DNA of 64,000 bases from Candidatus Latescibacterota bacterium. GTDB lineage: Bacteria; Latescibacterota; UBA2968. The notes under the pieces were generated by a model. The model ran no database searches, was not told the origin of the DNA, and saw only the letters and a list, made by a program, of their open reading frames with translations. The translations under genes were made by a program, and so were the position numbers. The DNA lies in the NCBI GenBank assembly GCA_965204375.1, contig OZ241986.1, positions 3,936,001 to 4,000,000 on the forward strand, written 5' to 3'. This document shows, one piece after another, positions 1 to 18,151 of the stretch. Within the stretch, counting starts at the first letter, position 1, and the number at the start of each line of letters is the position of its first letter.

Positions 1-1635
1 CAACCGTTGGACAATCAAGCCCATCAGTGTTGTGCCACCAGTCATGTTGGCTACGATCTCGTCGGCATTTAACAAATGGGTACGAGCCTGTTCTGCTGAC
101 GTCTTAATCTCGGAAAAACCACCGTGTGGATCGGTCAGAATAATCTGATCAATGTCACCGCCAAAGCCCGCATGTTTGGCGGCGTTACAAATACTACTTG
201 ATGATGTGGCTGAGCAAATCACCAGGCAGGTACCAGGCTCAGCGACTTTTAACGCCGAAAACAATACGCCGGGTCTTGTTCCTTGCGGTGAAAGCAACAA
301 CCGACCGCCGCCACCACCCAATTGCGGCAGAGCAATATGTTCCGCTTTCAGTTGATCCCAAAACATCTGAACCGATTCAAGATATCCTGGTGGCTGTTCA
401 AGAGGATCGTAGCGCATGCCATGATGGTGTAGTATATTGCGTAGGTCTGCGAGTTGATTCCAGAAGTCGCCGAACGCCTTCTGCTTACAGGTTCTGATAG
501 CTTTGAACGCCTCATCTCTGGCAAATGCGCCGAGGGCACCGAGGCGGCGTTCATACCGCAAGCGCACATCTCGGTCCAACCACTTTTCGACCTCTTCGGG
601 ATTTCCGGATTTCAATATGGCCCAGGAAACCACCCACTCACGCATTAGACCAATAGCCAACGGAAATTGACCGCGCTCCAGGTACAAATCAATCATGCCA
701 GCTTGACGAGCCAGTTCATCTTTATCTATAGTAACTGTCTTTTTCCATTGATCCTTTGGGGGTGACTTTACAAAGGCCGTTTTGTCAGCAACGCTGACGA
801 TAGCGTCCGTTAGTTCTTTAGCGAGCGGCGGAAGATTGGGAGAATCTATGTCAGGAAGGGTGCAAATCGCATCAACGAGCACCCGACTGGCCTTTCGCAA
901 TTCCAGCGGCAAAGCGGACTCATAGGCAAAGGCGTGCTTCCCCAGTGACTCAACTGAATTATTGACTTGATTGAATTGAGCGTTCCATTTTTTCCCCTCA
1001 CTCATATTACCAGCTTTGAACAGTGCGACTTTTTTTTCGTTTAACATATCTGCCAACGGCTTAAGAAGTTGCGCTACAGGCTCAGTCGTCCCCTGGTCTC
1101 GGAACATCCGCACCGCGTGAAACCACTCTGGCAATTCGAGTAATGGCCGCAAGTCAATGATGGGTTTGGGATCGGCAGTCTCGACCATGCCATAGTAGGC
1201 ACCGCGAATTTTCACGCCGCGGAGCGATGTGAGATAGAGTACCAGAGCGTAAAAGATGAACGGAAAGTGCCGGAACCCCTGTGTAACATCAAGCGTGAGT
1301 TCCGCGCCTTCTGGAATTTTTTGGGCTACCTTTTCGAGAATCTCACGGATCTCGTCGGGACTTTTTCCGTCGGGAATATCAATTGCTTCGGGTTTAATTT
1401 CAAGGATGGTGCTAATTTCCGTCTTAAAAACCGGCCATGTTTTATCCCTGGCTCCATCTGTGACCATCGCGACAACGCGATTGGGTTGTTGCAATGAGTC
1501 GAAAAATTGCACCAAAGCCAGTGGGGTGAGCGGTGCGGTAGCTGTTTTACCATTCCACTGGTATTCTGTTGGGATGGCATTCATTCCCAGACTGGTCAGT
1601 AGAATATGCTTATTTTCGTGTGTTTCTTCTTCCAA
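1..1635 (-). CDS. csx1: Csx1/TM1812-like CARF-HEPN ribonuclease with an additional C-terminal CARF domain (3' end beyond window)
   Basis: Not in the ORF track; translated by hand. TTG at 1635 follows AAGGAG and the frame stays open to base 1. N-terminal 'ILLTSLG...LDVTQGFRHFP...AYYG...IIDL' is a DxTHG-type CARF; HEPN motif 'RNILHH' at ~421-441; poly-Gly linker, then 'LLLSPQGTRPGVLFSAL...ANMTGGTTLM' (second CARF). Confidence 0.85.
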   Translation of the reverse strand, partial: MEEETHENKHILLTSLGMNAIPTEYQWNGKTATAPLTPLALVQFFDSLQQPNRVVAMVTDGARDKTWPVFKTEISTILEIKPEAIDIPDGKSPDEIREILEKVAQKIPEGAELTLDVTQGFRHFPFIFYALVLYLTSLRGVKIRGAYYGMVETADPKPIIDLRPLLELPEWFHAVRMFRDQGTTEPVAQLLKPLADMLNEKKVALFKAGNMSEGKKWNAQFNQVNNSVESLGKHAFAYESALPLELRKASRVLVDAICTLPDIDSPNLPPLAKELTDAIVSVADKTAFVKSPPKDQWKKTVTIDKDELARQAGMIDLYLERGQFPLAIGLMREWVVSWAILKSGNPEEVEKWLDRDVRLRYERRLGALGAFARDEAFKAIRTCKQKAFGDFWNQLADLRNILHHHGMRYDPLEQPPGYLESVQMFWDQLKAEHIALPQLGGGGGRLLLSPQGTRPGVLFSALKVAEPGTCLVICSATSSSSICNAAKHAGFGGDIDQIILTDPHGGFSEIKTSAEQARTHLLNADEIVANMTGGTTLMGLIVQRL

Positions 1636-1656
1636 GAGTAACTCCTTTCCTGAGAT

Positions 1657-3342
1657 TTACAAACTCCCGTTTTTCTTCTCCGAATGAATCCCGCGATGGC
1701 AAGTTTTGCAGACAATGAGGGTCTTTCGCTTTCGCGCGATCATTTCTCGCATCCATTTGTTCTCTGGTACTCGCCCCTGTCTATGGACGAGTTTTCGGAT
1801 ATGATGCACTTCCACATGGCCTGCTACGCCGCAGCATTCGCACTGGTTTGACAGCAGGCGTTGGATGAGTTCTACCCCCTTGCACCACATCGCCCTGTTC
1901 TGGTCATGAACCGCAAGAAATATCCCTTCTCTCGGCCTCAACGGAAAGCCGCCAAAGCGCGCCATCCGAGGTTGTCCATCTTCACACAACACCGGCACCT
2001 CCACACACGTTTGAGGACCATAAGGCGTTTGTATGGTCGCCTTATACTGCTTCACAAGTTGATTCACATGTGTCTTGTGTTTTTTCGCAAGCGTCTTGAG
2101 CAACGACGAACTCATCACCCAGCGCAATACATTTAAGATATGGACATTGTGTGCCAAAAGGTAGTATTGCACATATCCGACATATCGACTCTGAAAAAGA
2201 CTGATGATTTCCCAATCGCTGTCATGGAGCAGTTCAGCGCGGTATGTGATGCGCCCGCGTTTTTGATACAGGCTACACTTCTCTTTTACAGCTTTTTTAG
2301 GCACACTGAGACTCAAGGTATTTTGAGTTGCGCCATTCAGATTTTTAATTTCGTATCCGAGAAAAAAAGCACTCTCTGTCCGACAGTGGGTAATTGCAGT
2401 CTTGTCCTCTGAAAGCTCCAATCTCAGCGTCTCTCGCAAAAATGCTTTGAGACATTCTTTGATCTCTTTTGCCTCTGCCTTTCGCCCGGTAAAACCGATC
2501 AAAAAATCGTCGGCATATCGGATATAGCGAATACGTCTGAAACTGGGACCCTGAGCATCCAATATGGTCAGGATTCTTTGCAACTCCTCTGGGGTTTTCC
2601 AACTCGCCTCTATGCGTTTCTCGCCCGTTGTGTACAGGGGCACAAGCGTATTTTCGACAAACTGATCCAACCTGCCGAGATAGATATTTGCGAGAAGTGG
2701 ACTGATGGGACCGCCTTGTGGCGTACCCCTCAGCGTAGGTTCGTAACGCCCATGCGCGATGCATCCGGCCTTGAGCAACTCTCCGATTAAGTCGATAAAC
2801 CGATCATCGTGAATTTTCTCTTTCAAAATAGACAGCAGGCACTCGTGATCTATGCTGTCAAAGCACGCTTTGATATCGCCCTCAATAAAATAGTCTATGT
2901 CTTTCCATCTCGAAATTTCCGCGAGTGCAGAATGGCAACCTCGCTGAGGCCGAAATCCGTGGGACAGGTCACTAAACTGGGGATCATAATAAGCATCCAG
3001 CAGAGATCGCATAACCTCTTGCACCAGTTTATCCGACCAAACAGGTATGCCGAGCGGACGCCGCCCGCCATTTTTCTTCGGAATATAGATGCGCTTGACA
3101 GGCGTCCATTGATATCGCTCGCAGCGGAATGCCTCAATGAGGGCATTGATTTTCGCCATAGACATGCCATCTGTGGTTTCTCGTGTGATGCCTTGCGTGG
3201 TCGCGCCAGCTTTTCGATACAGCCGTCCATAAGCGCGTAAAAAGAGGTCCGGGTTGTAGAGGTGTCGATAAATGTTCTCAAGGGGCAAATTTTGTCTGCC
3301 TCTTTTCTGTATGGCTTTTAATACGGGTTCCGCGATCTTCAC
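1657..3342 (-). CDS. Group II intron-type reverse transcriptase/maturase with C-terminal HNH-like endonuclease domain
   Basis: RT motifs 'RPLGIP..DKLVQ', 'SHGFRP.RGCH', 'EGDIK.CFD', 'GTPQGG.ISPLLANIYL', 'YADD'; domain X region; C-terminal 'CECCG..VEVHH..CKTCH..IH'. Confidence 0.92.
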   Translation of the reverse strand: MKIAEPVLKAIQKRGRQNLPLENIYRHLYNPDLFLRAYGRLYRKAGATTQGITRETTDGMSMAKINALIEAFRCERYQWTPVKRIYIPKKNGGRRPLGIPVWSDKLVQEVMRSLLDAYYDPQFSDLSHGFRPQRGCHSALAEISRWKDIDYFIEGDIKACFDSIDHECLLSILKEKIHDDRFIDLIGELLKAGCIAHGRYEPTLRGTPQGGPISPLLANIYLGRLDQFVENTLVPLYTTGEKRIEASWKTPEELQRILTILDAQGPSFRRIRYIRYADDFLIGFTGRKAEAKEIKECLKAFLRETLRLELSEDKTAITHCRTESAFFLGYEIKNLNGATQNTLSLSVPKKAVKEKCSLYQKRGRITYRAELLHDSDWEIISLFQSRYVGYVQYYLLAHNVHILNVLRWVMSSSLLKTLAKKHKTHVNQLVKQYKATIQTPYGPQTCVEVPVLCEDGQPRMARFGGFPLRPREGIFLAVHDQNRAMWCKGVELIQRLLSNQCECCGVAGHVEVHHIRKLVHRQGRVPENKWMREMIARKRKTLIVCKTCHRGIHSEKKNGSL

Positions 3343-3411
3343 GACGCATCTCTTGATTGTTTTTAAGTATTGAAAGGTCTGTATTAGAGACCTAAAAACC
3401 CTGACCGACTG

Positions 3412-4736
3412 GTTTCAATCCCCTAAAAATCGGGTCAAGTGTTCTGCTGAGTTTTCTCACTCAATTCAAACGTTTGACCATCCCCGTGTTTCAATCCCCT
3501 AAAAATCGGGTCAAGTGTTCTGCTTGACAGCTCCTCAGCCCGCGTAAATCAGTAGGTAGTAGTGTTTCAATCCCCTAAAAATCGGGTCAAGTGTTCTGCT
3601 CCCCTTTATATATCAGACATACGAGATCTGATTTCTTTGTTTCAATCCCCTAAAAATCGGGTCAAGTGTTCTGCTGTGTTTTAGATAATTTTTTAGATGC
3701 TGATTGATAATTACGTTTCAATCCCCTAAAAATCGGGTCAAGTGTTCTGCTATGCTCGCTGTCTATTACACCTCGAAAGGAAGACATCAAGTTTCAATCC
3801 CCTAAAAATCGGGTCAAGTGTTCTGCTGATTCTGACACACCACCGGGACGATGTTGTTGTATGCTGTTTCAATCCCCTAAAAATCGGGTCAAGTGTTCTG
3901 CTCGGAAGCCATCACTCTTCTCATATTTTTTGCGTACTATCGTTTCAATCCCCTAAAAATCGGGTCAAGTGTTCTGCTTCCCCATATGACATCACATTCA
4001 CACGCGGAGGAATCGTCCGTTTCAATCCCCTAAAAATCGGGTCAAGTGTTCTGCTTTGTTGTGTTGGAAATGGGCTTTGCTCTCTCAGCAACGTTTCAAT
4101 CCCCTAAAAATCGGGTCAAGTGTTCTGCTTCCTCGTACGAGAGCACAATTCATAAGCTCGTCAACAAGTTTCAATCCCCTAAAAATCGGGTCAAGTGTTC
4201 TGCTATGAACAAATTATTCGCAATTGCAACAGCTGTCGTTATGTTTCAATCCCCTAAAAATCGGGTCAAGTGTTCTGCTGCACCCGAACCTTCCAAACAG
4301 CGGGGTTGCTGAGAGAGGTTTCAATCCCCTAAAAATCGGGTCAAGTGTTCTGCTTTGCGCGTGTGCATATCAAATCAAACCCGATGACTCCAAATGGTTT
4401 CAATCCCCTAAAAATCGGGTCAAGTGTTCTGCTATCGATGGCGAATTGAGCGATAACGAAATGTACGTGCTCGTTTCAATCCCCTAAAAATCGGGTCAAG
4501 TGTTCTGCTCTGAAGCACTGGATATCCAGGTAGTGCAGCGAGAGATGTGTTTCAATCCCCTAAAAATCGGGTCAAGTGTTCTGCTGAAATCCGAATAAAC
4601 CGCAAACAGGAGCTGGTGATATGGGTTTCAATCCCCTAAAAATCGGGTCAAGTGTTCTGCGTGCAGAGGACCAGGCTAATTATGATCGTCGTTGGCCAAG
4701 TTTCAATCCCCTAAAAATCGGGTCAAGTGTTCTGCT
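3412..4736 (-). CRISPR. CRISPR array, 18 repeats and 17 spacers (37-42 bp)
   Basis: 37-bp repeat GTTTCAATCCCCTAAAAATCGGGTCAAGTGTTCTGCT on +, i.e. AGCAGAACACTTGACCCGATTTTTAGGGGATTGAAAC on -, ending in the canonical ATTGAAAC handle. All copies are identical except one terminal base at 4661. Confidence 0.99.
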
Positions 4737-4997
4737 CGCTCCTTTCTAACTCGCTGAGTCACAATTTGTTTGAGAGCCTGTTGCGACTCAGGCCATATTG
4801 ACAGGCGTACGCCCATCCATTTTGATTCAACCATTGCAATCCCATTCTGATAATCCCTTGTAGGACAAGAAATTACAAATTCGCGACCCAGAATAGGATG
4901 AAATGATTTACCTAATTTCCACTGCTTAAAAGCAGTATCAATCCAATGCGCCATATTGACAACCTCTTTTTAATCAGAGTCGCGAAGCTCCGGATAT
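4737..4997 (-). promoter_or_regulatory. CRISPR leader
   Basis: Relatively AT-rich 261 bp between the cas2 stop and the first repeat; contains the palindrome ACTGCTT-AA-AAGCAGT (4921-4936). Confidence 0.75.
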
Positions 4998-5276
4998 TCA
5001 AACAATAATATGATCTTTTTCATCCTGCGGAGGTGAACCACCTGTAAACTCGATTTTGCTCTCGCATGCGCGGCACAGCGTATAATAGCGCACCAGATCA
5101 CCCTCTGCAAGACCAATTTCACTCATGCGCTGCCGCAACTCGACAAATTGCCGTTCGCCAATGCGACACTCGAACACACTCTTTTGCACCCGCGTTCCAA
5201 AAGCCTCCAGCACCCGCGTCGCCTGCCTGCGCGTGCGGTCAGAACTAATATCAAAGCAAATGGTCACAAACATCAA
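4998..5276 (-). CDS. cas2: CRISPR-associated endonuclease Cas2
   Basis: 92 aa, 'FDIS.DR.R...L..FG.RVQKSVFEC'; overlaps the cas1 stop. Confidence 0.97.
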   Translation of the reverse strand: MMFVTICFDISSDRTRRQATRVLEAFGTRVQKSVFECRIGERQFVELRQRMSEIGLAEGDLVRYYTLCRACESKIEFTGGSPPQDEKDHIIV

Positions 5277-6271
5277 CGCACCAGAAAAGCCCTGTATTGG
5301 GCCTCCTCACCCAGAATCACCCGGGCCAATCGGCGCACCTGATATTCAAGGCAACGCCGGTAAGAAATCCGCTCCACCCGCTCGCCCCCCACGGGATAGG
5401 TCACACGGTCTTCAAGACGTCTCTGGTACCCCTCAATCAACCGCTTGCGGCCCTCTCCCTGCAAAAATACACCCCCATCTCGCGCTTCAAAATCCTCGCT
5501 CTGCACCCGGTTGTGGTTGATCAAATCCAGCACCAGCGCATCCACCAGCACGGGCCGAAACTCCTCCATCAAATCCAGTGCCAGAGAAGGACGCCCATAG
5601 TCAACCACATGCAGAAAACCCAGATACGGGTCGAGACCAACAAGATAAATCGCGCCTTCCACACTATTGCCCAGCAACGCATACCCAAAGCTGAGCAACG
5701 CATTAACCGGGTCTCTGGGCGGACGTCTGTTGCGTCCCTTAAACGCGAATCCTTCGGGAAAAAAAGTCCCAAGCACGCCAAAATAAGCCGCGGTGCCCGC
5801 CCCCTCAATGCCGCGCAAAGTTTCGGCATTGGTAGCCTGTCCCACCTGCTGAATTGACCGACGCAATCTATGGGCCACTGTCCCCACATCCACCTTGCGC
5901 CGCCGCGCCAGACGCATAAGCAGGGTTCGCATATTGCGGAGTTTTCCCTCTACCACAGCCCGCGCCACACGCAGACGAAACGGCTCATCTTCATAGCACT
6001 TGAACTGCTTTTGTCGCAACACCACATTGCGCCGCGCAGGCCCCACCAGCCGTCCCCGATACCGCCCATTGATACTTAAAAAAACCGTATCCACCCCTTG
6101 TTCGAGCAACGTACTCATCGCCGGAGCCGAAAGCGCGATTTGCCCCATAAGCACCACCTGCTCCAGATCGTGCAAATGCACCTCAACCAGAACTTGCTTG
6201 CGTCGCCGCACTTGCAAACGCTCCCCCCGGCGATAAACCCCCGCACCCTGATCTGTCACATAGAGAATCAC
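5273..6271 (-). CDS. cas1: CRISPR-associated endonuclease Cas1
   Basis: 'LRGIEG...YF', 'R.RRPP.DPVNALLSFGY', 'GFLH', 'SLALDLMEEFR'. Confidence 0.98.
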   Translation of the reverse strand: MILYVTDQGAGVYRRGERLQVRRRKQVLVEVHLHDLEQVVLMGQIALSAPAMSTLLEQGVDTVFLSINGRYRGRLVGPARRNVVLRQKQFKCYEDEPFRLRVARAVVEGKLRNMRTLLMRLARRRKVDVGTVAHRLRRSIQQVGQATNAETLRGIEGAGTAAYFGVLGTFFPEGFAFKGRNRRPPRDPVNALLSFGYALLGNSVEGAIYLVGLDPYLGFLHVVDYGRPSLALDLMEEFRPVLVDALVLDLINHNRVQSEDFEARDGGVFLQGEGRKRLIEGYQRRLEDRVTYPVGGERVERISYRRCLEYQVRRLARVILGEEAQYRAFLVR

Positions 6272-8199
6272 CCCAGGTCAACCTCCACCTGGAAACGCCC
6301 CTCTCCATCGCGGCGCAAAATCCACCCACCAGCCCGCAGTTCATCCCGATCTGCCGAAGTAATGGCATAGTGCAGATCGTCTTCGAGTTGCGCCAACTCG
6401 CGTTTCAGTCGTTGGTAATCCCGCTGCAAATTCACGTATTTATCCACCAGAGGCCCGTGGCGGTCTGCACTCTGTGACCGGCCTCTGGTAAACGTTGAAT
6501 CGAGATGCAACAGCGGAGAAGGATACCCTCCTTCGGGCAAATCGAACACACACGCGCAATTAACCGTCGAAGTGACCTCGGGAAGACGCTGGCGGATCCT
6601 GGGACAACTGATGGGAGAGGGCGGCGTGCGATCAATCTGCTGCTGAGTGATGGTCTCGGAGTAATCGAGACAATGCCCTATGATACTGTGGATCAACCGT
6701 CCCCCACCGTCGTCCAAATGCCCCAAAATGCACTTGAGCACCAACCGCTCGTCGTGTGTGAGATGATGCGTAACCACGGCTTTTTCCATTAGCGCGACCA
6801 GCACCGGACACCCCTTGAAAAGAGCCTCGTATTCGGGAAAATCTGCTTGCAGAGTTTGCACTGACCCGGCCGTACCACCTTGTGCGGGCGGAGCCACCAG
6901 ACGGGACACGGCCTGCTCAAAAGCCCCTCGCTCAACCTGTTGGATGCGCTGGAGAAAACCTTCCTGATCGCTATACTCCTGTCCGTCCAGATCGGTAAAC
7001 AAACACCTGCGTCCGGTTTTCAGATGAATCCCCAGCGGCAACTTGATCAAATTGCCCAGTTGATCTTCGGCGACTTGCTCTTGCTTGGGAAAAACTTCCC
7101 ACTGGAGTTCTGGCCCCGGCGGACCGACCCGCTGGACAACCGCCTCTAAAAAACGCTTCACCACTGCTGCGGGCACTGGCTCAGCAAAAAAAAGCCACAG
7201 ATGCACCCCCTTATATCCACTATCTTCCACATAAACCGGCAGGTGTAAGTCTTCGAACTGCCGCGCCAGCCGCCGGGCGTCTGCCAGCACCAACTCTTGA
7301 AGTCGAGCAGAAATGGGCTGACCCGCCTCGCCCGCTTTCAGGGCACTTTTGCGGATATCGATATCAATAGCCCCGAAAAGCACGGTCTGGTCTGCCCGCA
7401 CCGGGTACACGCCCAGAGTCGCCGTACCTTGCAGATGCAGAGCCAACAGATGATCGGCGAGAGGCTCCTGTAGCGGACTGTACCCAACCCGACCATTCTC
7501 ATCTATCCACTGCCGCGCATGCACCCCTTCCCGCCCGGCAAACAAGACCCGCATCCGCCGCGCGGCATCCTCTCCAGAAGGCACCTCGCTACTCGGCAAT
7601 TGTGCCAATTCTCGCATCCGCGCCATCACCACCTGAAGCGCGGTCTGCGCCTCCTCATTATTCGGATCGCACGCCAGACCCCGCTCATAAGCATCTGCGG
7701 CCAGCCCCCACAACTCGTCTTCGACATAGCACTGCGCCAGTTCAAAAGCAACCGCAGCGTGATCTGGACTCACCCGCAGGGCGCGCTGCAACAAACCCAC
7801 GGCCCGGTCCCGCTCGCCACGTTCCAAGCAGATCAGACCCAGCCTGTAGAGTACCACACCATTTTCAGGCGCCCGTTTTAGCAGATCTTCATAGATCTGC
7901 ACCGCCGTTTCCAATTCTTCTACTTCCTCGGCGATCAGACCCCACTCGACATAGTGTTCATCGCAGGGCAACTGGCCGCGGTACGCGATGCGGTCGCGCA
8001 CCTTGTCGGGTTCGTTCCGCCCCAGCCACACCCGCGCCATCAACTGATGCGCTGGCACACTAACCGGATCGGTCACCAGTACATCGGCACACAAACTCTC
8101 GGCGCGATCAAATTCCCCATCCTCAATATGCTGCCGCGCCTGATCCAACATATCCTGTATATCCGCCAAACGTATATCCCTCACAAAATCTCGTAGCAC
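6268..8199 (-). CDS. CRISPR-associated primase-polymerase (CAPP; TPR + AEP + Cys-rich PriL-like C-terminus)
   Basis: N-terminal TPR repeats; AEP motifs 'DID', 'SGYKGVH', 'GNLIKLP'; C-terminal Cys at GCP, HCLDY, ISC, CAC; overlaps both cas6 and cas1. Confidence 0.9.
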   Translation of the reverse strand: MLRDFVRDIRLADIQDMLDQARQHIEDGEFDRAESLCADVLVTDPVSVPAHQLMARVWLGRNEPDKVRDRIAYRGQLPCDEHYVEWGLIAEEVEELETAVQIYEDLLKRAPENGVVLYRLGLICLERGERDRAVGLLQRALRVSPDHAAVAFELAQCYVEDELWGLAADAYERGLACDPNNEEAQTALQVVMARMRELAQLPSSEVPSGEDAARRMRVLFAGREGVHARQWIDENGRVGYSPLQEPLADHLLALHLQGTATLGVYPVRADQTVLFGAIDIDIRKSALKAGEAGQPISARLQELVLADARRLARQFEDLHLPVYVEDSGYKGVHLWLFFAEPVPAAVVKRFLEAVVQRVGPPGPELQWEVFPKQEQVAEDQLGNLIKLPLGIHLKTGRRCLFTDLDGQEYSDQEGFLQRIQQVERGAFEQAVSRLVAPPAQGGTAGSVQTLQADFPEYEALFKGCPVLVALMEKAVVTHHLTHDERLVLKCILGHLDDGGGRLIHSIIGHCLDYSETITQQQIDRTPPSPISCPRIRQRLPEVTSTVNCACVFDLPEGGYPSPLLHLDSTFTRGRSQSADRHGPLVDKYVNLQRDYQRLKRELAQLEDDLHYAITSADRDELRAGGWILRRDGEGRFQVEVDLG

Positions 8200-9122
8200 C
8201 CCAGGCCAAAGCCCGTACCCTTACCCACATGCAAATCTGCGCCCAGTCGCAAAAGCGGCATAAACGGTTCTATGTCCCCAGTAAAAACCACATCGCCCAC
8301 CACACCGCCCAATTTCATCCTCTGATCCTGACGCAACGAATACCGCTCCCAATCGTACCAGCGCGTATTCACCGTTGCGGTCTGCACTTTTTCTGCCCGC
8401 GCAATCCACTGCCCGTAATCCAGTTCCAGTTCCGCGCCACAGTGAAAGCGCATCAGATCTGATACGCGCCGCAACAACGCGCGCACCAGCAGGGAAAAAT
8501 CGAGACGAGAAGCATAGCGTCCTCCCGCTTTGAGACGGATCGGCGTCTGCAACCGCAGATGCACCAACGAGCCAACATCTTCTCCCCTGGACGACCCAAC
8601 ACAAAGCGGATAATCCAGATCCAGCATGCCCGTATCCGCCTCATAAATGCACTGTTCGCCCGCCGCACTCAGCGCAACAACCCGCTTCAGCGCAACTTTC
8701 CCGCGCCCCGTCCCCAGGCCCTGACGCCCCATCTCTTCAAAGGCATAAATAAAATAGGGCAGAGAATCCAGTGCCCGCCCCACCAGCACCAGCCCGACAG
8801 ACAGTGCGTCGCCTACCTCGTAAATCTGGTGCGTCTCTCCAGGCGGTTCAATCACAAACGGATGTGGCGCGAAAGCGTATCCCCGGCTGTCTTCCTCATC
8901 GCTGAACGGCGGCGTCTCAAAAACATAATAATACACGCACTGGGCGCAGATCAGACACGTCGAACAGTCCATATCTCGCTTAACGCACACCAGCTTTTTG
9001 AACGCATGCCCAAAAGCCCCCCGAAGGGTCGATCCCTTGTAGGGCGGCAATTTCAAGCGATCAACCGCCACCATCTCCATGCGAAAACGCGCATAGTGAA
9101 TTTTACGCAGTTCATCTATCAT
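8181..9122 (-). CDS. cas6: crRNA processing endoribonuclease Cas6
   Basis: 'GSTLRGAFG', Cys-rich insert, C-terminal Gly loop 'GKGTGFGLG'; ATG at 9122 follows GAGGTG. Confidence 0.95.
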   Translation of the reverse strand: MIDELRKIHYARFRMEMVAVDRLKLPPYKGSTLRGAFGHAFKKLVCVKRDMDCSTCLICAQCVYYYVFETPPFSDEEDSRGYAFAPHPFVIEPPGETHQIYEVGDALSVGLVLVGRALDSLPYFIYAFEEMGRQGLGTGRGKVALKRVVALSAAGEQCIYEADTGMLDLDYPLCVGSSRGEDVGSLVHLRLQTPIRLKAGGRYASRLDFSLLVRALLRRVSDLMRFHCGAELELDYGQWIARAEKVQTATVNTRWYDWERYSLRQDQRMKLGGVVGDVVFTGDIEPFMPLLRLGADLHVGKGTGFGLGCYEIL

Positions 9123-9227
9123 AGGCTCACCTCTTTTGAATAGGGAAGCCATATATACGCGAATTGCGCGTTAAAAGCAAACACAGCATAACAGGTAGCA
9201 ACACACTGGCGCAGTCATACCACTCTT

Positions 9228-9536
9228 TTAGCGAGAAAGAAGCGGCCGGTAAACCTTCAAGGAACGTACATTTGATCTTATAGAAACCGGAAGTTTGTCC
9301 CAGCGCAGCAAAGCCAGATAGAGTTCTGCCGCCACATTTTCATCCGGAACAACAGGCACACCTGATTCGTTGAGGATTAAAAACTTTTCAGGACCCGGAT
9401 GTATTAAATTCCAACTGATTTGATAGACATTGCCATCACTTGCCCTGATCAAATAAGGTTGTGGCACAGCCTCGTTATCTTGGTCTGACCGCCTGATGAT
9501 CCTTAACAAAGCCTTTCCGTCACCAGCCAACTTCAC
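9228..9536 (-). CDS. Hypothetical protein
   Basis: 102-aa ORF with a GTGA overlap to the upstream peptidase stop. Confidence 0.55.
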   Translation of the reverse strand: MKLAGDGKALLRIIRRSDQDNEAVPQPYLIRASDGNVYQISWNLIHPGPEKFLILNESGVPVVPDENVAAELYLALLRWDKLPVSIRSNVRSLKVYRPLLSR

Positions 9537-12274
9537 TCGTTAATGATGTAGATAATGCGCCCATTCTCATCCGACACGTAGATCGGTCCTTTCAGGATAC
9601 AGTCCCCCCACTTGCTACTCTGGCCGCCAACGAGCTTCCCGCTCGGAGGGGCGGGCAAGCTATACGCATCGGCCCGACTAACATTGACGCGGTAGCCGAG
9701 ATCAGATAGGGACTGGATCGTGATCGCGCTCAGGGGATTGGCATCGTAACTGTGAGTCGGCGTCATAAGTTCGTTGCCGAACACGGACGCCCTCCAATGA
9801 CCGCCATCACTCTCTGTTGGTACCTTTGCCCCGTTGTAATTCCTACCACCTGCATTGTTGAACGCTTGAATCGATAGCGCGCCGGTGAAGTACCTGTCAC
9901 TACGCCCACGGAGCAAATCCAGGTAATCCCAAAGCGTCCCAATCCCCAGAACGTGCCCCATCTCATGTAAGACCACCGTCCAGAGAGATCCTTCCTCCTC
10001 TATCCTCTGAAGGTCGGCCGTATCTAACAATATCTTTCCAAGAATCGGCAATTTGGTGTCCCCTCGTATCCAAAAATATCCCGCTCGCCCAAGGGTATCG
10101 CCGGAGCCGTCGATACTGGTAGCCCCCACGAATATCCGCAGGTCATCCACGGTGTCATTAACGCGAATTCTTGCGCCCAAATCCGCGTCCCATTCATTAT
10201 ACGGATTGGTCGAAAAGTCGATATCACTGAGGTCTTCTGTAATGATCGACATCCAGTGCCTTGCCGCCTGTCGGAATACTGCCTTCTGAGAAATGGTAAA
10301 GTCGTTGTCGTTGACAAAGACGAGTTCGATATTGAAGTCCCCGCTCGTGCCCGACGTCGATTCCTGATTCGCCTCTATTTTCAGGGTATAGCTCCCAGCA
10401 GTAGAAGAATCATAACCTCGTATCCGGATATAGTAGGTGCCCGAACGAACCGAAGCAGAAGTATAGAAGTTGCTACCCACACCCGCATCGTCATCCTCAG
10501 TAAGAACCCGACCTGAACTATTCAGGATAGCACCGTAGGTATCCGTGCTACCCGTCGTATAAGCAACCAAAGTACCAGAACCACTCACACTAACGCGGAA
10601 GTAATCCGTATCCCCCGCTGATAACCTGCCAGAAGTCGTACTGCCCAACGAGACTCGCGTTGCCTCTGAGCGCGTGTTTCCATGGTCATCTACGATGGTG
10701 ACCGTGATGCGTATGGCAGTAGAGCAATTGTTTCCGGTATCGCTCTCGCCGCTGACATCATCCACGCAGGCACCGTAAAAATAGGTCCCTGCGCTCGATG
10801 GTACATTCAAACGGATTGACTCAGCACTCGTATTAGAAGCCGGAAGACCGCTCACCGCGTCCGTGCCAACTTCCCTATCACCCGTTGTAATCGTCGCGTT
10901 TGACGAGCGGTAATAGCGCAGTGTCGTAGTGGCAGACCGACCAGTACCCTGATTGCGGACGGTAGCTCTCAGCGTGAAGGATTGCCCTGACGTCAGGGTA
11001 TTATCGCTGACCGAAGGCGATTCAACAATCAGGTCCGGCGCACCACCGCCACCACCGCCACCACCGCCACTCGCAGGAGATACCGGTTTGCCAAAATCAT
11101 TGGTGAAGATCACAAAATCTGAAAAACCAATCGCACCATCGCTATCCAAATCGTATTTCGCTTGATATGTCCCATCGCCTCGGCTTGACCCAAACACGCC
11201 TGCAAACTGCACAAAGTCGGCAAAGCCAACCATACCATCCCCGTCAAAGTCGGGCGTCAGAACCGCAGAATCTGATTGCAACCCAACGCTAATACTCAGC
11301 GTCACGCGCTCAAATTGTCCACTCCGACCAAGTTCACCGCGCACCAGCCGAATACGCGTACCCGAAAACGCCGCCATCGTGCGAAAGCGAATCGTGCCTA
11401 CCAGACCCGTATTGGACGTGGCTTGACCACCCAAAGACCCAATACTGATCTGGACAAAAGTCGGATTTGTGCCGTGTTCTGCTGGAAGCACGACAACATT
11501 TGGCAGCACATCACCCGCATCAAAACCGTCATAACCAACCTGACCCGCATCGTATTCAAAGCGCGTAGAAATACCATTCGCATTTTGAATATCCCTGCCA
11601 AAAATCTGAATGGCAACAACCTGACCGGGCGATACATTCACAGATGTAGCCGCTTGATCACCTGCTGAGCCATTTACATCCAGGGACAGAGAAAAACTAT
11701 TCTGTGAGGATACAGACTGCTGTCTCGCTTTCGCAAAAGTAATTACGATCCTGATTGGATCATCTGGCGGTACGTGCTGAGACAGTGCGTTCATTGCCAG
11801 AGGTCTTACAGATTCGGGTAATGAGGCCAATAATTCTTCTAAAAGAAGCGGGCGTATGATATGCAGCGAATCCGCCGTCGCTGTGTACGTATAATTGGTC
11901 TTCATTTTCGCGGTTATGGTGAGTGCATGGGTATCGGACGCGACTGTATAATTCCCCTCATATCGGCTCGTATCGTGTACAGCGACAGTAAGCGGAACCA
12001 ATAATACCATAGAGAAATTGGTTACTGTTGTGTAGTCAGATTGAACCTTGCCATCTGAACCAAAAGTTATTGTGCCGTTGATCTCGCCTTCGACTGTAAG
12101 AGGCGATACAACCTGCACGAGCCCGGCCGGGACATAAGCGTTCAGCCCGATCTTCTCAGCTACCCATGAACCCACGATATCGCCACCTTGAGGCTTAGGG
12201 GTTTCTGGCAGCAGTCCCGCATCTGCCTGTCCAAATGCTATGAACACCGTAATAAGTAGAACGTAGTCTCTCAA
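9533..12274 (-). CDS. Secreted multidomain zinc metallopeptidase (cohesin-like, EF-hand/dockerin-like, CARDB, PPC, leishmanolysin/M8-like)
   Basis: Signal peptide; 'PDFDGDGMVGFADF' pair; poly-Gly linker; 'HEMGHVLGIG...GHW...ELMT'. Confidence 0.85.
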   Translation of the reverse strand: MRDYVLLITVFIAFGQADAGLLPETPKPQGGDIVGSWVAEKIGLNAYVPAGLVQVVSPLTVEGEINGTITFGSDGKVQSDYTTVTNFSMVLLVPLTVAVHDTSRYEGNYTVASDTHALTITAKMKTNYTYTATADSLHIIRPLLLEELLASLPESVRPLAMNALSQHVPPDDPIRIVITFAKARQQSVSSQNSFSLSLDVNGSAGDQAATSVNVSPGQVVAIQIFGRDIQNANGISTRFEYDAGQVGYDGFDAGDVLPNVVVLPAEHGTNPTFVQISIGSLGGQATSNTGLVGTIRFRTMAAFSGTRIRLVRGELGRSGQFERVTLSISVGLQSDSAVLTPDFDGDGMVGFADFVQFAGVFGSSRGDGTYQAKYDLDSDGAIGFSDFVIFTNDFGKPVSPASGGGGGGGGGAPDLIVESPSVSDNTLTSGQSFTLRATVRNQGTGRSATTTLRYYRSSNATITTGDREVGTDAVSGLPASNTSAESIRLNVPSSAGTYFYGACVDDVSGESDTGNNCSTAIRITVTIVDDHGNTRSEATRVSLGSTTSGRLSAGDTDYFRVSVSGSGTLVAYTTGSTDTYGAILNSSGRVLTEDDDAGVGSNFYTSASVRSGTYYIRIRGYDSSTAGSYTLKIEANQESTSGTSGDFNIELVFVNDNDFTISQKAVFRQAARHWMSIITEDLSDIDFSTNPYNEWDADLGARIRVNDTVDDLRIFVGATSIDGSGDTLGRAGYFWIRGDTKLPILGKILLDTADLQRIEEEGSLWTVVLHEMGHVLGIGTLWDYLDLLRGRSDRYFTGALSIQAFNNAGGRNYNGAKVPTESDGGHWRASVFGNELMTPTHSYDANPLSAITIQSLSDLGYRVNVSRADAYSLPAPPSGKLVGGQSSKWGDCILKGPIYVSDENGRIIYIINE

Positions 12275-12414
12275 TACTTTAAACCGCCATTCACTTAATT
12301 TTGTTGCTTTTGGGATTTTACATTGTGGAATCGAGAGGTCCCCTACTCAGCGCAAGTGATACACTTTCCCTTACTCGTGTACACATGGAGTTGCCCCGCT
12401 TCAGTGGAGAGTTT

Positions 12415-12785
12415 AGGCCAAAGCCAGAGGTGTCACCTTGTTGGCTCCGGCGATGCCCCCAAGGGGAAAGGTCAGGGTAAATTGGCATTGGAGGACTTTG
12501 AAGTAGATGCATCCAGACACATCCAGCAATGTCCAGCGGGCCACATGCCCTTCGAGATGTCTGTGAGCAAGAAACGCCTCCAGGTTCGATTTGCTATAGA
12601 TGTGTGTGGGCAATGCCCTTTGCAGGACCGCTACCCGATCAAGGGAAAAGATCGTCTCCAATACACCCACGAACGCATAAAGCAGCGTGCCCGGTGTCTA
12701 TCTCAACAGTCTCCCGCCTTTCGTGACCGATACCGTTGGCGAGCAGGCATCGAAGGGACCGTATCGCGTCTAAAGCATCAAGCAT
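12415..12785 (+). pseudogene. Fragment of IS1182-like transposase
   Basis: Diverged inverted copy of ~14795-15165 ('PKGKGQGKL.LEDFEVDAS', 'YRWRAGIE.T.SRLK'); N-terminus missing. Confidence 0.85.
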
Positions 12786-12837
12786 GATAGCTTCTGATGG
12801 GAGCCTCTTAAATACACCATAGCATATTTTTCTTCTT

Positions 12838-13647
12838 TTAAAAGGTTTTCCTGGCTCGTAGGTCTTGGGCTTGTTTGGCGATTATATCTACTTCTCGCGG
12901 GTCAAGGTATCCGTATGTTCGGTTCAGAATTTCTTTATACATTGCCTCAAGTTGCATCCCTAGTGCTGAATAGACAGCGTTATCTACTTCTAAGAACCTC
13001 TTAAACGACACATTTGGAGAATTCCACTTGGATATACCAATAGGGAGGGCGATAGGCGTAATATTTACGCTTTTGGTCCACATTTTTTCATTTGTGAGAC
13101 TTTCGTGAATAAGCAAAGTAACACGCGGATTCATGTAGATCGACCCTGTGTATTCCCAATACTTACTATAGCTAATGACTCGGATATTGGAAGTATCAAA
13201 ATTGAAATTGATTTGAGCGGTAAGAATTAAATTGCTATTGCTTTTATCCACAAATGTCATATCGTCAAATGTCGGGAATGGCCCTCGCAGTGTGTATCCG
13301 CGTGCAGTAATTATCTCACCAAAATCCGCTGCCATATTACTCGAAAATCTGTTAAACATTGGAATTGAAGGAAGCCCTACCATCATTATAGGCGAACCGC
13401 CTCCCGAGGGGTCCATATATGGATAAGGACTACTTGGATAACCCGGATTTTGGCCAAATTGACTTCCTATCACAGCAAATGTAATACCTGTTTTACCTGC
13501 AATATCTTCTTCAGGCATGTAGTCAAATGTAGGACGCCGTCTTAAGACAATCTCCTCACGCGTAGCTACACAACCGCCAAATATAGTGATACATAGCGCA
13601 GCCAATGTGAACAAACCACATAAATTTTTCCATCGTATAAAATACAT
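12838..13647 (-). CDS. Putative lipoprotein
   Basis: ATG at 13647 after AAGGAGAGG; signal peptide ending 'IFGGC'. Confidence 0.75.
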   Translation of the reverse strand: MYFIRWKNLCGLFTLAALCITIFGGCVATREEIVLRRRPTFDYMPEEDIAGKTGITFAVIGSQFGQNPGYPSSPYPYMDPSGGGSPIMMVGLPSIPMFNRFSSNMAADFGEIITARGYTLRGPFPTFDDMTFVDKSNSNLILTAQINFNFDTSNIRVISYSKYWEYTGSIYMNPRVTLLIHESLTNEKMWTKSVNITPIALPIGISKWNSPNVSFKRFLEVDNAVYSALGMQLEAMYKEILNRTYGYLDPREVDIIAKQAQDLRARKTF

Positions 13648-13676
13648 AATCCTCTCCTTTTTCTCCTTTTTTGCAT

Positions 13677-14132
13677 TTACCATCTGGTGACAGTTACGGC
13701 AAGAATAATCCAAATTAAACCTGCTAGCTTAATTCGTCCCCACATCCCTCTTGGTTCTATAAGTTTTTTCGACGATGTAGATGTTGTAATGATTTTGTAT
13801 ATGCGGTTTTTGTCAACATGCACATCCCGCACGCCAGGGGTTGTCCCTCTAACACCTATAAGGTGTTTCTCTATTACCTCCTCAATAACTACATGTTCGG
13901 AAGAAACAGATTTAACCTTGCCGCGTATTTCATTACTTTCTAAGAAACCACCAACATCCTCATAGTAAAACAAGGTCACTTCTTCCCCAATAAAGGACTT
14001 GAGATCATCTGCACCTAGAACAGCAGATTTATTTTCATCTCTACCTTTGCCCTCTAAATACTTATTGGCATAACAACCTACTTGTAATAGCAAAGCCAAA
14101 GGCAAAATAATGTATAACACCTTTTCATCCAT
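13677..14132 (-). CDS. Putative lipoprotein/membrane protein
   Basis: GGAGG RBS; 'LLLQVGC' lipobox; hydrophobic C-terminus. Confidence 0.7.
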   Translation of the reverse strand: MDEKVLYIILPLALLLQVGCYANKYLEGKGRDENKSAVLGADDLKSFIGEEVTLFYYEDVGGFLESNEIRGKVKSVSSEHVVIEEVIEKHLIGVRGTTPGVRDVHVDKNRIYKIITTSTSSKKLIEPRGMWGRIKLAGLIWIILAVTVTRW

Positions 14133-14292
14133 ATATCCCTCCCTTCAAAAACAAATTTCTAAATTCAGAAAGAAGCCTTCCTCCGCAGGTCACGGACAGG
14201 CATAATAAGTTTTAACCCCCTTTCTTGTTACATCCATCAAACGGGAAAATGCAACTTGATTTTGTGATTGTGGAACGTTACATTATTCACAA

Positions 14293-14416
14293 AGCGGGTT
14301 GCGGTTTGCAAGACCGTTTCCCTCTCTGTATGTTGCGGCAGAAGGCCACAGGTGCCAACCCGAGCGGCCTTCTGCCCTTCACGCAAGCATAACGATGTCT
14401 GCGGTTTTTTAATTTA
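14293..14416. repeat. Conserved ~125-bp intergenic element, copy A (copy B at 31556-31680)
   Basis: Aligns by eye with 31556-31680; 11-bp stem GGCAGAAGGCC/GGCCTTCTGCC at 14337-14376. Confidence 0.85.
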
Positions 14417-14456
14417 TAAAAACAGATTTGTCCATCAACATATCTGTGAATCTACC

Positions 14457-16295
14457 TCAAATCGCGGCAGGGATGCCGCTCCTACAGCAGATTGATGAGA
14501 TATTGTCAAATGTTGACGGGTCGGCAAAAAGTCTTAAAATCAAGGGAGAAAGCCCCCTGTAACCCCTTGTCGTGGGTACTTCAAATCGTCTGTTCATACG
14601 CCCTGATATAGGTTTGTAAGGCCCAATAACCCGCTGATGACCTTGCAAGGCACTCAAAAGCCTACCAAAAAGCTTTTGAGGGTAAAAGGACCCCCTATAG
14701 ACAGCGACACGATGGATATTGAGACCCAATGCGCTGAGCAAGACCCGATATTTTACCGCACCTTGCCCACGCACCCGCAGGTGAGCCAGTCCCATTTGAT
14801 GCTTTAGACGCGATATGGTCGCTTCGATGCCAGCACGCCAGCGGTATTGGTCACGGAAGACATCAGACTGTTCAAACAGACGCCGGGCACGTTGCTTGAC
14901 ACGCTCGTGGGTATATTGGAGACGCGCTTTCCCTGGGATTGGACAGTGCTCTTGCAAGGGGCATTGGTCACATAAATCTGGGGCAAATCGAACCTGAAGG
15001 CGTTTCTTGCTCACAGACATCTCAAGGGGTGCATGGCCGGCTGGACATCGCTGGATGTGCCCAGATGCATCTACTTCAAAGTCCTCCAACGTCAATTTAC
15101 CCTGACCTTTGCCCTTGGGGGGCATCGACGGAGCCAACAACGTGACACCTCTATCTTTGGCCTGCGCGATACATTTTGTCGAACCGTAGTGCGTATCGGC
15201 CAGCAGATGCTTGGGCATCACGCCACGGGCTTGTGTATCCTGTATGGCAGGTAAGAGGGCTTTACTGTCATGGACTGTCATCTTGCCAACGGCGATATGC
15301 GTGATCAGGTCTGGCAGGGCAACTTTAGACACGCCTGATGTGGCGTCCTGTGCCTCATCGTCTTTGTCGGTATCATCACAGAAGGTCTCCATGACCTGTA
15401 TGAGGTAGCCCACCCCACGATGCTTATTATAGCTGGCGTCAGGATCGGCCGGATTAAGCGTATTATCACACGGTATCGCATGGGGATCCCGCATCTGGAT
15501 GCTGCTTTGACCAGATGCGCCTTGTATGCGTTGGCACTGTTCTTCAAAAACACCTGCCAACAGATGGTAGCTGTCCAACTGCGCCGCTTCGGTTGGACAA
15601 AACAGCTTTAGCAATGCATCTATATCGGCGGCGGCTTCTAACAATCGACACTTTGACTGGCTCGGTGTGGTTAAAGCGAAACACCCATCGCCTGTGCGGG
15701 CAACATACTTGCGCCACAAGTCACAGTCCAGTTCCTGATACAACTCTGGGCAGGTTCGACGCAACTGGCGCAAGAATTTACTCATGGACTCGACCAGAAT
15801 GCCCAAGCGTGTCAGGTTGCGCATAAAGCTTTGGACACCCGTCGAGTCAATCCGCTGCTTGCGGGTATGAACCCCTACCGAATGAATGAGCTTGTCGGTC
15901 AGACTTTGGAAGAGCACCTCATCCAGGTGATGCTGAATCACCAAACGACGATAGGTGCGAAGCGTTCGCTCGCAAAAATAACAGTCGGCTTCACTGCGCA
16001 CATCAAGGGCATACTGCCAAGCGATGTTGAATGCAATGGCCTCCACTGTCTGTGCATCGGTCAAATCATGCAGTTGTTGCAGCACCAGTGCGCCGAGCAC
16101 AACGTGGAGGTCTTTGCTGGGACGCCCAAAATTTTTGCTAAAATGGGGGGCCAGTGCCTCAACGGGCAGTTCCAAAAGCAGATACTCTCGGAAAACACCA
16201 GCCCAGGAACGATCAAGAAGTTGCTTGCGTTTAGCCCCAAGCTGTATCCAGAAATCCGGTGGGGCTGCCCTATCGTGGTCTCGTAAAGTAAGCAT
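14457..16295 (-). CDS. IS1182-like DDE transposase
   Basis: 'GRPSK', 'RIDST', 'DPDASY', 'LADTHYG', 'YRWRAGIEATIS.LK'; the ORF reads through its own TIR. Confidence 0.85.
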   Translation of the reverse strand: MLTLRDHDRAAPPDFWIQLGAKRKQLLDRSWAGVFREYLLLELPVEALAPHFSKNFGRPSKDLHVVLGALVLQQLHDLTDAQTVEAIAFNIAWQYALDVRSEADCYFCERTLRTYRRLVIQHHLDEVLFQSLTDKLIHSVGVHTRKQRIDSTGVQSFMRNLTRLGILVESMSKFLRQLRRTCPELYQELDCDLWRKYVARTGDGCFALTTPSQSKCRLLEAAADIDALLKLFCPTEAAQLDSYHLLAGVFEEQCQRIQGASGQSSIQMRDPHAIPCDNTLNPADPDASYNKHRGVGYLIQVMETFCDDTDKDDEAQDATSGVSKVALPDLITHIAVGKMTVHDSKALLPAIQDTQARGVMPKHLLADTHYGSTKCIAQAKDRGVTLLAPSMPPKGKGQGKLTLEDFEVDASGHIQRCPAGHAPLEMSVSKKRLQVRFAPDLCDQCPLQEHCPIPGKARLQYTHERVKQRARRLFEQSDVFRDQYRWRAGIEATISRLKHQMGLAHLRVRGQGAVKYRVLLSALGLNIHRVAVYRGSFYPQKLFGRLLSALQGHQRVIGPYKPISGRMNRRFEVPTTRGYRGLSPLILRLFADPSTFDNISSICCRSGIPAAI

Positions 16296-16354
16296 AAACG
16301 AAATATAGCTTACCAAAACTATCGGGGCAATCTCTGACTTTTTGCCGACCCGTC
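14515..16354 (-). mobile_element. IS1182/IS5-like insertion sequence
   Basis: Perfect 19-bp TIR GACGGGTCGGCAAAAAGTC (14515-14533, 16336-16354) flanked by direct repeat AAATGTT; the exact TIR/TSD boundary is ambiguous by 1-2 bp. Confidence 0.9.
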
Positions 16355-16391
16355 AAATGTTGTGGATGGGTTTAGAACGCATCCTTTATGA

Positions 16392-17630: not shown

Positions 17631-17751
17631 GAGCGTGTCCTTTCTCCCTCCTGGAGGGATTTTAGGTTTTTGTGATACTATAGGATACGCTCTTTTCTTT
17701 TACTCATCCACAACTTTTGAATATACCTCCAGATTGATTATTGCGTTATAA

Positions 17752-17947
17752 AGAAAAAAACCAGGTGTCATCACCTATGACACCCGGTTAATATTATGCC
17801 GGTCAAATGCCACAGGCTGTGTGACTCACTCTATAGCCCAGATTGAGCTCGGCCCTTTCGGAGACCGAAACCATAGCATTTAACCGGCTGGAGATTGCAC
17901 ATATTGTACCCGGCTCCCTCCAGCCGGCACTATAGAATGATTCACAC
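17752..17947 (-). ncRNA. Candidate structured non-coding RNA or attenuator (~195 nt), family unknown
   Basis: Bounded by a sigma70-like promoter and an intrinsic terminator; four complementary helices, including a GAAA-tetraloop hairpin. Confidence 0.55.
17754..17789 (-). terminator. Rho-independent terminator
   Basis: Minus strand ACCGGGTGTCAT-AGGTG-ATGACACCTGGT followed by a T-run. Confidence 0.8.
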
Positions 17948-17953
17948 GCCCTT

Positions 17954-17982
17954 ATAGTACAACATCAAAAATTCCTTCGCAA
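17954..17982 (-). promoter_or_regulatory. sigma70-like promoter
   Basis: TTGCGA-17 bp-TACTAT on the minus strand. Confidence 0.6.
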
Positions 17983-18151
17983 CAAAAAAATCGCTCATAA
18001 GACGACCTGCAGGTGCTGTCTGGTATAGCGCGTGTCGGCCAGGGGAGCATGTCGCTCGCCTGATTGCACCGCCAAATAGGACACATTCACAAGCATCTGG
18101 TTTCAAAAAAAAGTAACTATTCAGGACATTGTTGGAAACCCGTGTTGCTAA

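Follow-up and report, generated by a model that had tools for sequence, protein, structure and literature searches.

An intron-type reverse transcriptase without intron RNA follows the CRISPR array of a CAPP-Cas1-Cas2 locus in Latescibacterota

Reverse transcriptases (RTs) that lack intron RNA are known from type III CRISPR loci, where they lie beside Cas1 or are fused to it and have been assigned to 13-15 clades of several origins (PMC6013744, PMC8632793); whether the RTs in CRISPR adaptation have a single origin or several is debated (PMC6013744). According to the published model of recruitment, an intron lands near cas1 and loses its RNA, and the RT then co-evolves with its new partners, the earliest stages of the scheme being marked as arrangements yet to be identified (PMC6013744, PMC8632793). 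Here we analyze an RT gene that follows the CRISPR array of a locus at the left end of a 64,000-nt stretch of DNA (the window), which covers positions 3936001-4000000 of a 6.34-Mb single-contig genome (G000:C1). The nearest named relatives of this genome are metagenome-assembled genomes of Candidatus Latescibacterota. Coordinates are window-based unless preceded by a locus or contig handle.

The pairing of an RT with an archaeo-eukaryotic primase-polymerase (AEP) has also been described, both in fusions of CRISPR-associated RTs (CARTs) with CRISPR-associated primase-polymerases (CAPPs), known as CAPP-RT or CART-CAPP proteins, and in clade 12 RTs, which are 'adjacent or fused' to an AEP (PMC8211822, PMC10415136, PMC8632793). 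In the CART-CAPP fusions that were studied, a short fingers-palm module forms the RT, and the primase-polymerase domain proved inactive; neither HNH nor maturase occurs as a word in that paper (PMC10415136). CAPPs combine DNA-dependent primase and polymerase activities with strand displacement, clearly prefer DNA templates and associate with Cas1 and Cas2; their AxA mutant is inactive, prespacer synthesis and gap filling have been proposed as their roles, and Cas1-Cas2 integrates only double-stranded prespacers (PMC8211822). In mobile introns the HNH domain makes the primer for reverse transcription (PMC8632793).

A full-length intron-type protein without intron RNA

The RT gene (1657-3342, minus strand) has a GTG start and encodes a protein of 561 amino acids (aa) in which RVT_1, Intron_maturas2 and an AI2M-like HNH domain were recognized with Pfam. 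Its domain order, RT(0-7)-X-D-En, where X is the maturase domain and En the HNH endonuclease, matches an LtrA-like intron protein from end to end and thus contains all the domains of a group II intron-encoded protein. The best relative among solved structures is LtrA (5g2x; E 1e-98, aligned over residues 4-552). Weaker matches were obtained for the Cas6-RT-Cas1 protein 7kft (4e-12), the RT of a CART-CAPP protein, 8bgj (2e-10), and G2L4 (9d4s/9d5x, 4e-4 only), the last value giving no ground for counting the RT among the G2L4-type proteins. With the model TIGR04416, the RT scored 278 bits, under the cut-off of 300.

No intron RNA was detected with Rfam at E<=1 in window positions 1-12000, so that the catalytic RNA by which a group II intron is recognized was not found at this locus, and the same search was negative at all six loci of the RT lineage, i.e., the present one and five sister loci. 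Among the 20 intron-type relatives found in genome contigs, 16 were scanned (L020 and L024-L026 were left out), and each of these, 46-53% identical to the RT, carries RF00029 directly after the open reading frame (ORF). RF00029 was also detected in two positive controls, the second RT of the same genome (L005, 37-50% identical to the CRISPR-linked RT) and an intron of genome G016 (L054), which brings the intron-type relatives from genomes with domain V directly behind the ORF to 18 of 18 scanned. The RT ORF is flanked by only 69 nt 5' and 21 nt 3', too little to accommodate ribozyme domains; an intact but unusual intron was rejected on this ground. The gaps between array and RT showed no similarity to 25 intron loci or to each other, indicating that they hold neither a ribozyme remnant nor a conserved untranslated RNA. 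By eye, only the ~15 nt preceding the GTG start resemble those of other loci.

The genome carries one copy of the CRISPR-linked RT gene, its sole other match being the 37-50% identical second RT, and does not present the multiple copies expected of a mobile group II intron. A metagenome scan with the RT yielded only intron-type relatives of <=60% identity. Among 12 of these that were scanned, 7 carry RF00029, 5 of them just after the ORF and 2 elsewhere or on the opposite strand; a further one gave a D1-D4 match only, and the 4 with neither are partial RT matches or lie on contigs that end at the match. Taken together, the RT is a full-length group II intron-type protein without a ribozyme.

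Introns are also found in these genomes. The second RT of G000 belongs to a complete-looking group II intron (L005:7529-9576, G000:C1:1647529-1649576), which encodes an RT-X-HNH protein of 635 aa and has its domain V/VI at 9419-9576. In G016, a closer intron is matched at two places with equal identities and scores; its two halves show 62% and 49% identity to the CRISPR-linked RT.

Recurrence behind CRISPR arrays and selection on the gene

The nearest relatives of the RT on genome contigs are found at L006 (94% identical) and L007 (87%), both in the same genus, in which 2 of the 20 other species genomes searched carry a CRISPR-linked RT gene. L006 shows the order cas6, CAPP, cas1, cas2, 31 repeats and RT, followed by the same CARF gene and the same III-D genes as the present locus. 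At L007, cas6, CAPP, cas1, cas2 and three repeats precede the RT, which starts 22 nt past the last repeat and is followed by a different effector set made up of Csm6 (TIGR02710), a RAMP whose cold-shock domain is N-terminal, and a cas10 of 28% identity. When the database relative P0010 was used to search 168 genomes of the phylum, three further carriers emerged, all from another family (G143, G136 and G125). Their loci comprise CAPP, cas1, cas2, 33 repeats, RT and Csm6 (TIGR02710) at L061; CAPP, cas1, cas2, 55 repeats, RT, a Card1-like gene and a divergent cas10 (28% identical) at L062; and, at L063, where the contig begins within the array, RT, Csm6 (TIGR02710), Cmr1 and Cmr2.

In all six readable contexts (the present locus, L006, L007, L061, L062 and L063) the RT is therefore the first long gene past the array, and CAPP-cas1-cas2 precede the array in each of the five with visible upstream sequence. 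The distance from the last intact repeat to the RT ranges from 22 to 761 nt over the six loci, and the gaps contain degenerate repeats, a 138-codon ORF (L063) or a short ORF fragment (L062). Between the RT-bearing loci, CAPP is 81-94% and cas1 86-96% identical. The genes after the RT vary, with a TIGR02221 CARF gene and III-D genes at the present locus and L006, Csm6 at L007, L061 and L063, Cmr1/Cmr2 at L063 and the Card1-like gene at L062. Hence, the constant partner of the RT is the adaptation cassette, and the effector modules differ.

In the protein database, the RT has relatives that are 83-91% (P0001-P0008) and 60-68% (P0009-P0019) identical, after which come ordinary intron proteins of at most 55% identity. 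The RT lineage as used here consists of 25 sequences that group together in a FastTree drawing. The trio of RTs of the present type is monophyletic (100/100) inside the intron-protein tree, on a stem of 0.89 changes per site; so long a stem fits a burst of change after loss of the RNA partner, followed by constraint. All 25 members of the lineage lack at least 23 residues in the stretch from RT motif 4 to motif 5 through a shared deletion, and the subclade of the present RT lacks a further ~15 residues after motif 7. The deleted segments are presumably intron-specific insertions that touch the intron RNA. YADD and the Cys/His framework of the HNH domain are kept in all 25 members.

Between the present locus, L006 and L007, the ratio of nonsynonymous to synonymous substitution rates (dN/dS) of the RT is 0.11-0.14 at dS 0.22-0.53, and cas6, CAPP, cas1 and cas2 show values of 0.09-0.14 at similar dS. 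Resolved by domain, dN/dS is 0.09-0.13 for the RT core, 0.06-0.13 for X and 0.14-0.19 for D+En. Across subclades it is 0.11-0.18, a rough figure given that dS exceeds 1 and is saturated. All six RT frames are open over 552-573 codons. Short partial relatives are present in the protein database as well (P0020 and P0035). The substitution pattern indicates that the RT is under purifying selection; its catalytic motifs are intact.

The surrounding cassette, array and effector genes

The cas6, CAPP, cas1 and cas2 genes, the leader, the array, the RT gene and a CARF-HEPN gene are all co-oriented on the minus strand. This is the gene order, cas6-CAPP-cas1-cas2-leader-array-RT-csx1-like, that a sequence-only reading of this DNA had proposed, and the overlapping or very short junctions that it described are likewise present: 19 nt of overlap between cas6 and CAPP, 4 nt between CAPP and cas1, 4 nt between cas1 and cas2, a gap of 69 nt that separates the last repeat from the start of the RT (3343-3411, minus strand), and 21 nt from the RT stop to the start of the CARF-HEPN gene. 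The cas6 gene of that reading (8181-9152, minus strand; 323 aa, PF10040 E 9e-19, TIGR01877 under its cut-off) stands, whereas the boundary given for it, 9122, corresponds to an internal Met, since the gene reaches 9152. Orthologues of cas6 are 94% identical in L006 and 87.5% in L007.

The CAPP gene (6268-8199, minus strand) encodes a TPR plus AEP protein of 643 aa (PF22548 E 4e-42, and TPR families). It scored 360 bits with NF040561 (cut-off 200), keeps the D-I-D (DxD) and His motifs in an alignment to the CAPP core structure 7nqd, and is part of an operon with cas1 and cas2 through the 4-nt overlaps. By these features, the protein named as a CAPP in the earlier reading qualifies as a true type A1 CAPP and is apparently active. 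It is followed by cas1 (5273-6271, minus strand; 332 aa, PF01867 E 3e-101, TIGR00287 311 bits), cas2 (4998-5276, minus strand; 92 aa, PF09827 E 8e-19, TIGR01573) and a leader of 261 nt from cas2 to the first repeat (4737-4997, minus strand), which contains a promoter-like site on the minus strand at 4962-4934 (consensus match only).

In the array (3412-4736, minus strand), 17 spacers of 37-42 nt alternate with 18 repeats, each 37 nt long, of which 17 are identical. Its repeat gave no match to the Rfam CRISPR-DR families. On the minus strand the repeat has the 3' end ATTGAAAC, which we take to mark the transcribed strand and which agrees with transcription in the direction of the genes. Between array and RT no terminator-like sites were found besides the hairpins formed by the repeats, and the RT may thus be co-transcribed with the array. 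The G+C content is 0.56-0.59 over cas2-cas6 (5000-9000) versus 0.44-0.50 over the array, RT and CARF gene (1-5000), with ~0.47 for the RT gene itself; given this contrast, the histories of the two parts may differ.

Several features of the arrays were seen in addition. In the L006 array, one spacer occurs twice with 97% identity (8312-8344 and 8674-8706), the sequence that follows the last intact repeat is similar to the first spacer (85%; 7483-7509 and 9737-9763), and two repeat variants lie in separate blocks, possible signs of duplication or recombination inside the array. Between cas1 and cas2 of G016, 24 nt are exactly duplicated in tandem (L007:9206-9253), which lengthens the cas2 frame to 120 codons. 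Searches of the 149 spacers from the six arrays against the own genome returned only chance-size matches of 17-21 nt, and no spacer was common to different arrays, the only near-duplicates among the 149 being the pair within L006. The present array and that of L062 gave no match to GenBank phages. Contigs from short reads (four runs) break or collapse in the array and are uninformative on spacer turnover.

The CARF-HEPN (Csx1-like) gene starts at 1635 on the minus strand, ends 131 nt left of the window and encodes 588 aa (TIGR02221); its translation contains R-N-x-x-H-H-H, which we read as the HEPN motif. Further left, again on the minus strand, lie a short Cas10-like gene, genes for a Csx10-like RAMP and another RAMP, csx19, a gene for a TIGR03986 RAMP with a cold-shock domain, and a CARF-adenosine-deaminase gene. 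Csx19 scored 90 bits with TIGR03984 (cut-off 35) and the TIGR03986 RAMP was likewise above its cut-off; since the csx10 and cas10 family matches remained under theirs, the module is called type III-D-like. Left of the window, where the earlier reading had suggested looking for cas10, csm or cmr genes, there is thus a type III-D-like module, and the RT lies inside the locus, between the array and the type III-D-like effector genes.

The row of type III-D genes is closed by the CARF-deaminase gene (L004:9303-11114, minus strand; G000:C1:3925303-3927114), whose product of 603 aa combines an N-terminal CARF-like region (PF09623) with an adenosine deaminase (PF00962, E 8e-38) and resembles effectors that we take to be Cad1. 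The cold-shock domain is fused to the TIGR03986 RAMP at its C-terminus in the present locus (L004:11260-13665, minus strand) and at its N-terminus in L007 (13373-14977). In L061, a cold-shock domain match (4209-4397) forms the C-terminal end of an ORF just upstream of CAPP (3318-4400), and a weak match to the cspA thermoregulator is found at 4144-4459. On the other side, the edge of the locus is marked by a non-cas gene directly upstream of cas6 (9533-12274, minus strand), whose 913-aa product weakly matches metallopeptidases and contains a CARDB domain that passes its Pfam threshold (E 2.5e-10). Beyond it, window positions 12323-19787 are spanned by three long ORFs (14457-16316, 16392-17630 and 18429-19787), judged by eye from their translations to be putative transposases, and a fragment (12323-12787) that, when translated, corresponds to the C-terminal portion of the first of them.

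Proposed origin and comparison with known systems

We consider it probable that the RT is a domesticated intron protein that is kept by selection as the sixth component of a portable adaptation cassette, (cas6)-CAPP-cas1-cas2-leader-array-RT. An LtrA-like intron would have inserted at the trailer of a type III CRISPR array and lost its whole ribozyme, the full-length RT-X-D-HNH protein remaining. The RT would then supply the one ability that the set of CAPP, Cas1 and Cas2 is missing, the copying of RNA, and may thereby have a role in the acquisition of RNA-derived spacers. It would copy RNA into first-strand cDNA, CAPP would prime and make the second strand and/or fill the repeat gaps after integration, the unfused Cas1-Cas2 would integrate the cDNA-derived duplex, and the HNH domain may nick DNA or trim ends. 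A complex prediction for Cas1, Cas2 and the RT gave a score of 0.02 and is uninformative either way. A more specific scheme, which we regard as decidedly unlikely, is a three-enzyme RNA-to-spacer machine that is still retrohoming-like: the HNH domain would nick at or near the leader-repeat junction or process prespacers, the RT would make target-primed or self-primed cDNA on captured RNA, possibly its own transcript, and CAPP would provide second-strand priming and gap filling for the unfused Cas1-Cas2.

Several observations weigh against a part for the RT in the adaptation cassette. CAPP is found in 10 of the 20 genomes of the genus, and three of these, G001, G017 and G019, have CAPP and cas1 genes 81% and 84-85% identical to the present ones and no RT match. 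At L051, the array is directly followed by an orthologue of the CARF (csx1) gene, 64% identical, without an RT, and the second CAPP-cas1-cas2 locus of G000 itself (L053, G000:C1:5197001-5217000), with CAPP 41% and cas1 58% identical and an array of its own with a different repeat type, has no RT either. Since the RT is missing from orthologous cassettes, it is an add-on on which CAPP-Cas1-Cas2 do not depend. Moreover, the six contexts stem from one class (one phylum, two families) and are thus not independent; a CARF gene of one of three different families follows closely after the RT in five of the six loci, making a link to signalling effectors possible; and the array separates the RT from cas1. 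In another Latescibacteria genome, a 68-codon N-terminal remnant of the RT (L028:10001-10204, 85% identical) continues from an unrelated upstream frame, with no cas match within 10 kb on either side.

The histories of RT and cassette are also not fully congruent. In a FastTree of CAPP plus Cas1, the RT is present in groups A (the present genome, G014 and G016; support 0.98) and B (G143 and G136; 0.84) and absent from group C (G001, G017 and G019; 0.99). The distant outgroup joins the branch to group A (0.92), and on that rooting one gain of the RT and one loss in C would suffice; the outgroup branch is long (1.13), and two gains are therefore also possible. A comparison of clade A with clade B gives 60-70% identity for the RT at dS 1.1-2.2, compared with 81-88% at dS 0.6-1.1 for CAPP and cas1, and G143 is nearest to G136 for CAPP plus Cas1, yet its RT groups nearer to clade A. 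Both these differences and those in G+C content would be accounted for by recombination between arrays whose repeats are similar, in which case the link between RT and cassette persists through shuffling and not through strict co-inheritance.

Viewed against what the sequence-only reading had put at stake, orthologous cassettes of five other genomes carry the RT at their array trailers, a positive outcome for the conservation check that it proposed, and the RT shows purifying selection (dN/dS 0.11-0.14) with YADD kept. Absence from related loci, which that reading named as one part of a refutation, is seen in three loci with an 81%-identical CAPP and in L053.

The proximity of a CARF-family gene in five of six loci, the array between the RT and cas1-cas2, the partly incongruent RT history and the orthologous cassettes without an RT also favor a possible, if unlikely, alternative, namely that the RT was domesticated and is useful outside adaptation, in the cyclic-oligoadenylate/CARF arm, the effector complex, interference cDNA or DNA repair, its position past the array being a relic of the landing site. 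Domesticated intron-like RTs that act in repair have been described (PMC12337344). However, the nearby CARF genes come from different families (TIGR02221, TIGR02710 and Card1-like) and the effector modules differ between III-D and III-B, while CAPP-cas1-cas2 and the array are the constant neighbors; L051 has the orthologous csx1 without an RT; and G2L4 is a much weaker match to the RT than LtrA.

It is very unlikely that the RT still serves introns, either as a trans-acting maturase/RT or as part of a mobile element whose RNA partner is invisible to Rfam. The X (maturase) domain is under the strongest constraint (dN/dS 0.06-0.13) and intron copies do exist in these genomes (L005 in G000 and the two matching places in G016), but the resident introns of both genomes carry intact protein genes of their own, and G000 has a single copy of the CRISPR-linked RT gene. 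Furthermore, intron RNA at E<=1 was found in none of the six loci, the RT flanks match neither intron 5' regions nor each other, and the lineage shows a deletion, common to all members, within an insertion of the RT, together with a long stem branch. Hardly credible is an inert, decaying remnant of an intron insertion kept by linkage only. Truncated copies of the kind that this would produce exist in the 68-codon remnant of L028 and the partial proteins P0020 and P0035, but the six loci have retained open frames of 552-573 codons although dS runs from 0.2 to above 1, dN/dS is low in every domain (0.06-0.19), and the catalytic motifs are kept in all 25 lineage members.

If the RT is indeed a domesticated component of the adaptation cassette, its lineage looks like an early stage of recruitment, with a complete RT-X-D-HNH protein that is 46-62% identical to the proteins of working introns, ribozyme-less and under selection; the retrohoming-like scheme, if true, would make it an early stage that still bears its endonuclease, of the sort outlined in published models but listed there as yet to be found. 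The orthologous CAPP-Cas1-Cas2 cassettes with and without an RT provide a natural contrast. As the RT is encoded here apart from an apparently active CAPP, as opposed to the fusions with their dead primase, simple mutants would suffice to test the division of labor between RT, primase-polymerase and integrase. RNA recording is a field in which a compact, nuclease-bearing RT that supplies an integrase could be of interest as well.

A literature search, which included the available part of PMC8934634 and did not extend to the clade and neighborhood supplements or the 2019 survey of origins, returned no account in which a CRISPR-linked RT retains X, D and HNH, in which the array trailer is the fixed place of an RT, in which such a system occurs in Latescibacterota, or in which a separate full-length intron-type RT lies after the array next to an apparently active TPR-CAPP. 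Within this search, the earlier statement that the arrangement is not known as a described system holds for the separate full-length RT-X-HNH protein after the array, whereas the pairing of an RT with an AEP was already in print (PMC8211822, PMC10415136, PMC8632793).

The mobile LtrA-like introns, such as Ll.LtrB/LtrA and the Herpetosiphon intron L013, share the RT(0-7)-X-D-En architecture with the present RT, which in contrast to them has no ribozyme, occurs in one copy per genome, is fixed at CRISPR arrays and carries the lineage deletion of at least 23 aa as well as the other of ~15 aa in its own subclade. The operon of Marinitoga piezophila resembles the present one in that the gene for a TPR-AEP protein with a C-terminal domain adjoins cas1 and cas2 of a type III system; here, an RT gene follows the array, whereas the available part of PMC8211822 describes an RT only as a CAPP-RT fusion and does not mention a separate RT gene for the Marinitoga CAPP-TPR operon. 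Those CAPP-RT or CART-CAPP fusions (Caloramator and Geobacillus) likewise bring together an RT and an AEP primase-polymerase with one Cas1-Cas2 in a type III locus, but they do so in one protein, as opposed to two genes ~3 kb apart, a TPR-type CAPP that keeps DxD and an RT that is a complete intron-type protein.

The CARTs at large (stand-alone, RT-Cas1 and Cas6-RT-Cas1 proteins; the Toro clades) have in common with the present case an intron-derived RT without intron RNA in a CRISPR-cas locus of type III with cas1-cas2, and by that definition the present protein is one of them. It differs in keeping full X, D and HNH endonuclease domains and in its position past the array, 1.3 kb of which lie between cas2 and the RT, neither beside cas1 nor fused to it. 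It is also 46-53% identical to intron-type genome loci and 60-62% to the nearest intron proteins, and far nearer to LtrA (1e-98) than to the two solved CARTs, which were the representatives of the published RT-CRISPR clades 1-15 available for comparison (7kft, 4e-12; 8bgj, 2e-10). The RT lineage appears to be an independent, more recent recruitment of an intron RT by CRISPR.

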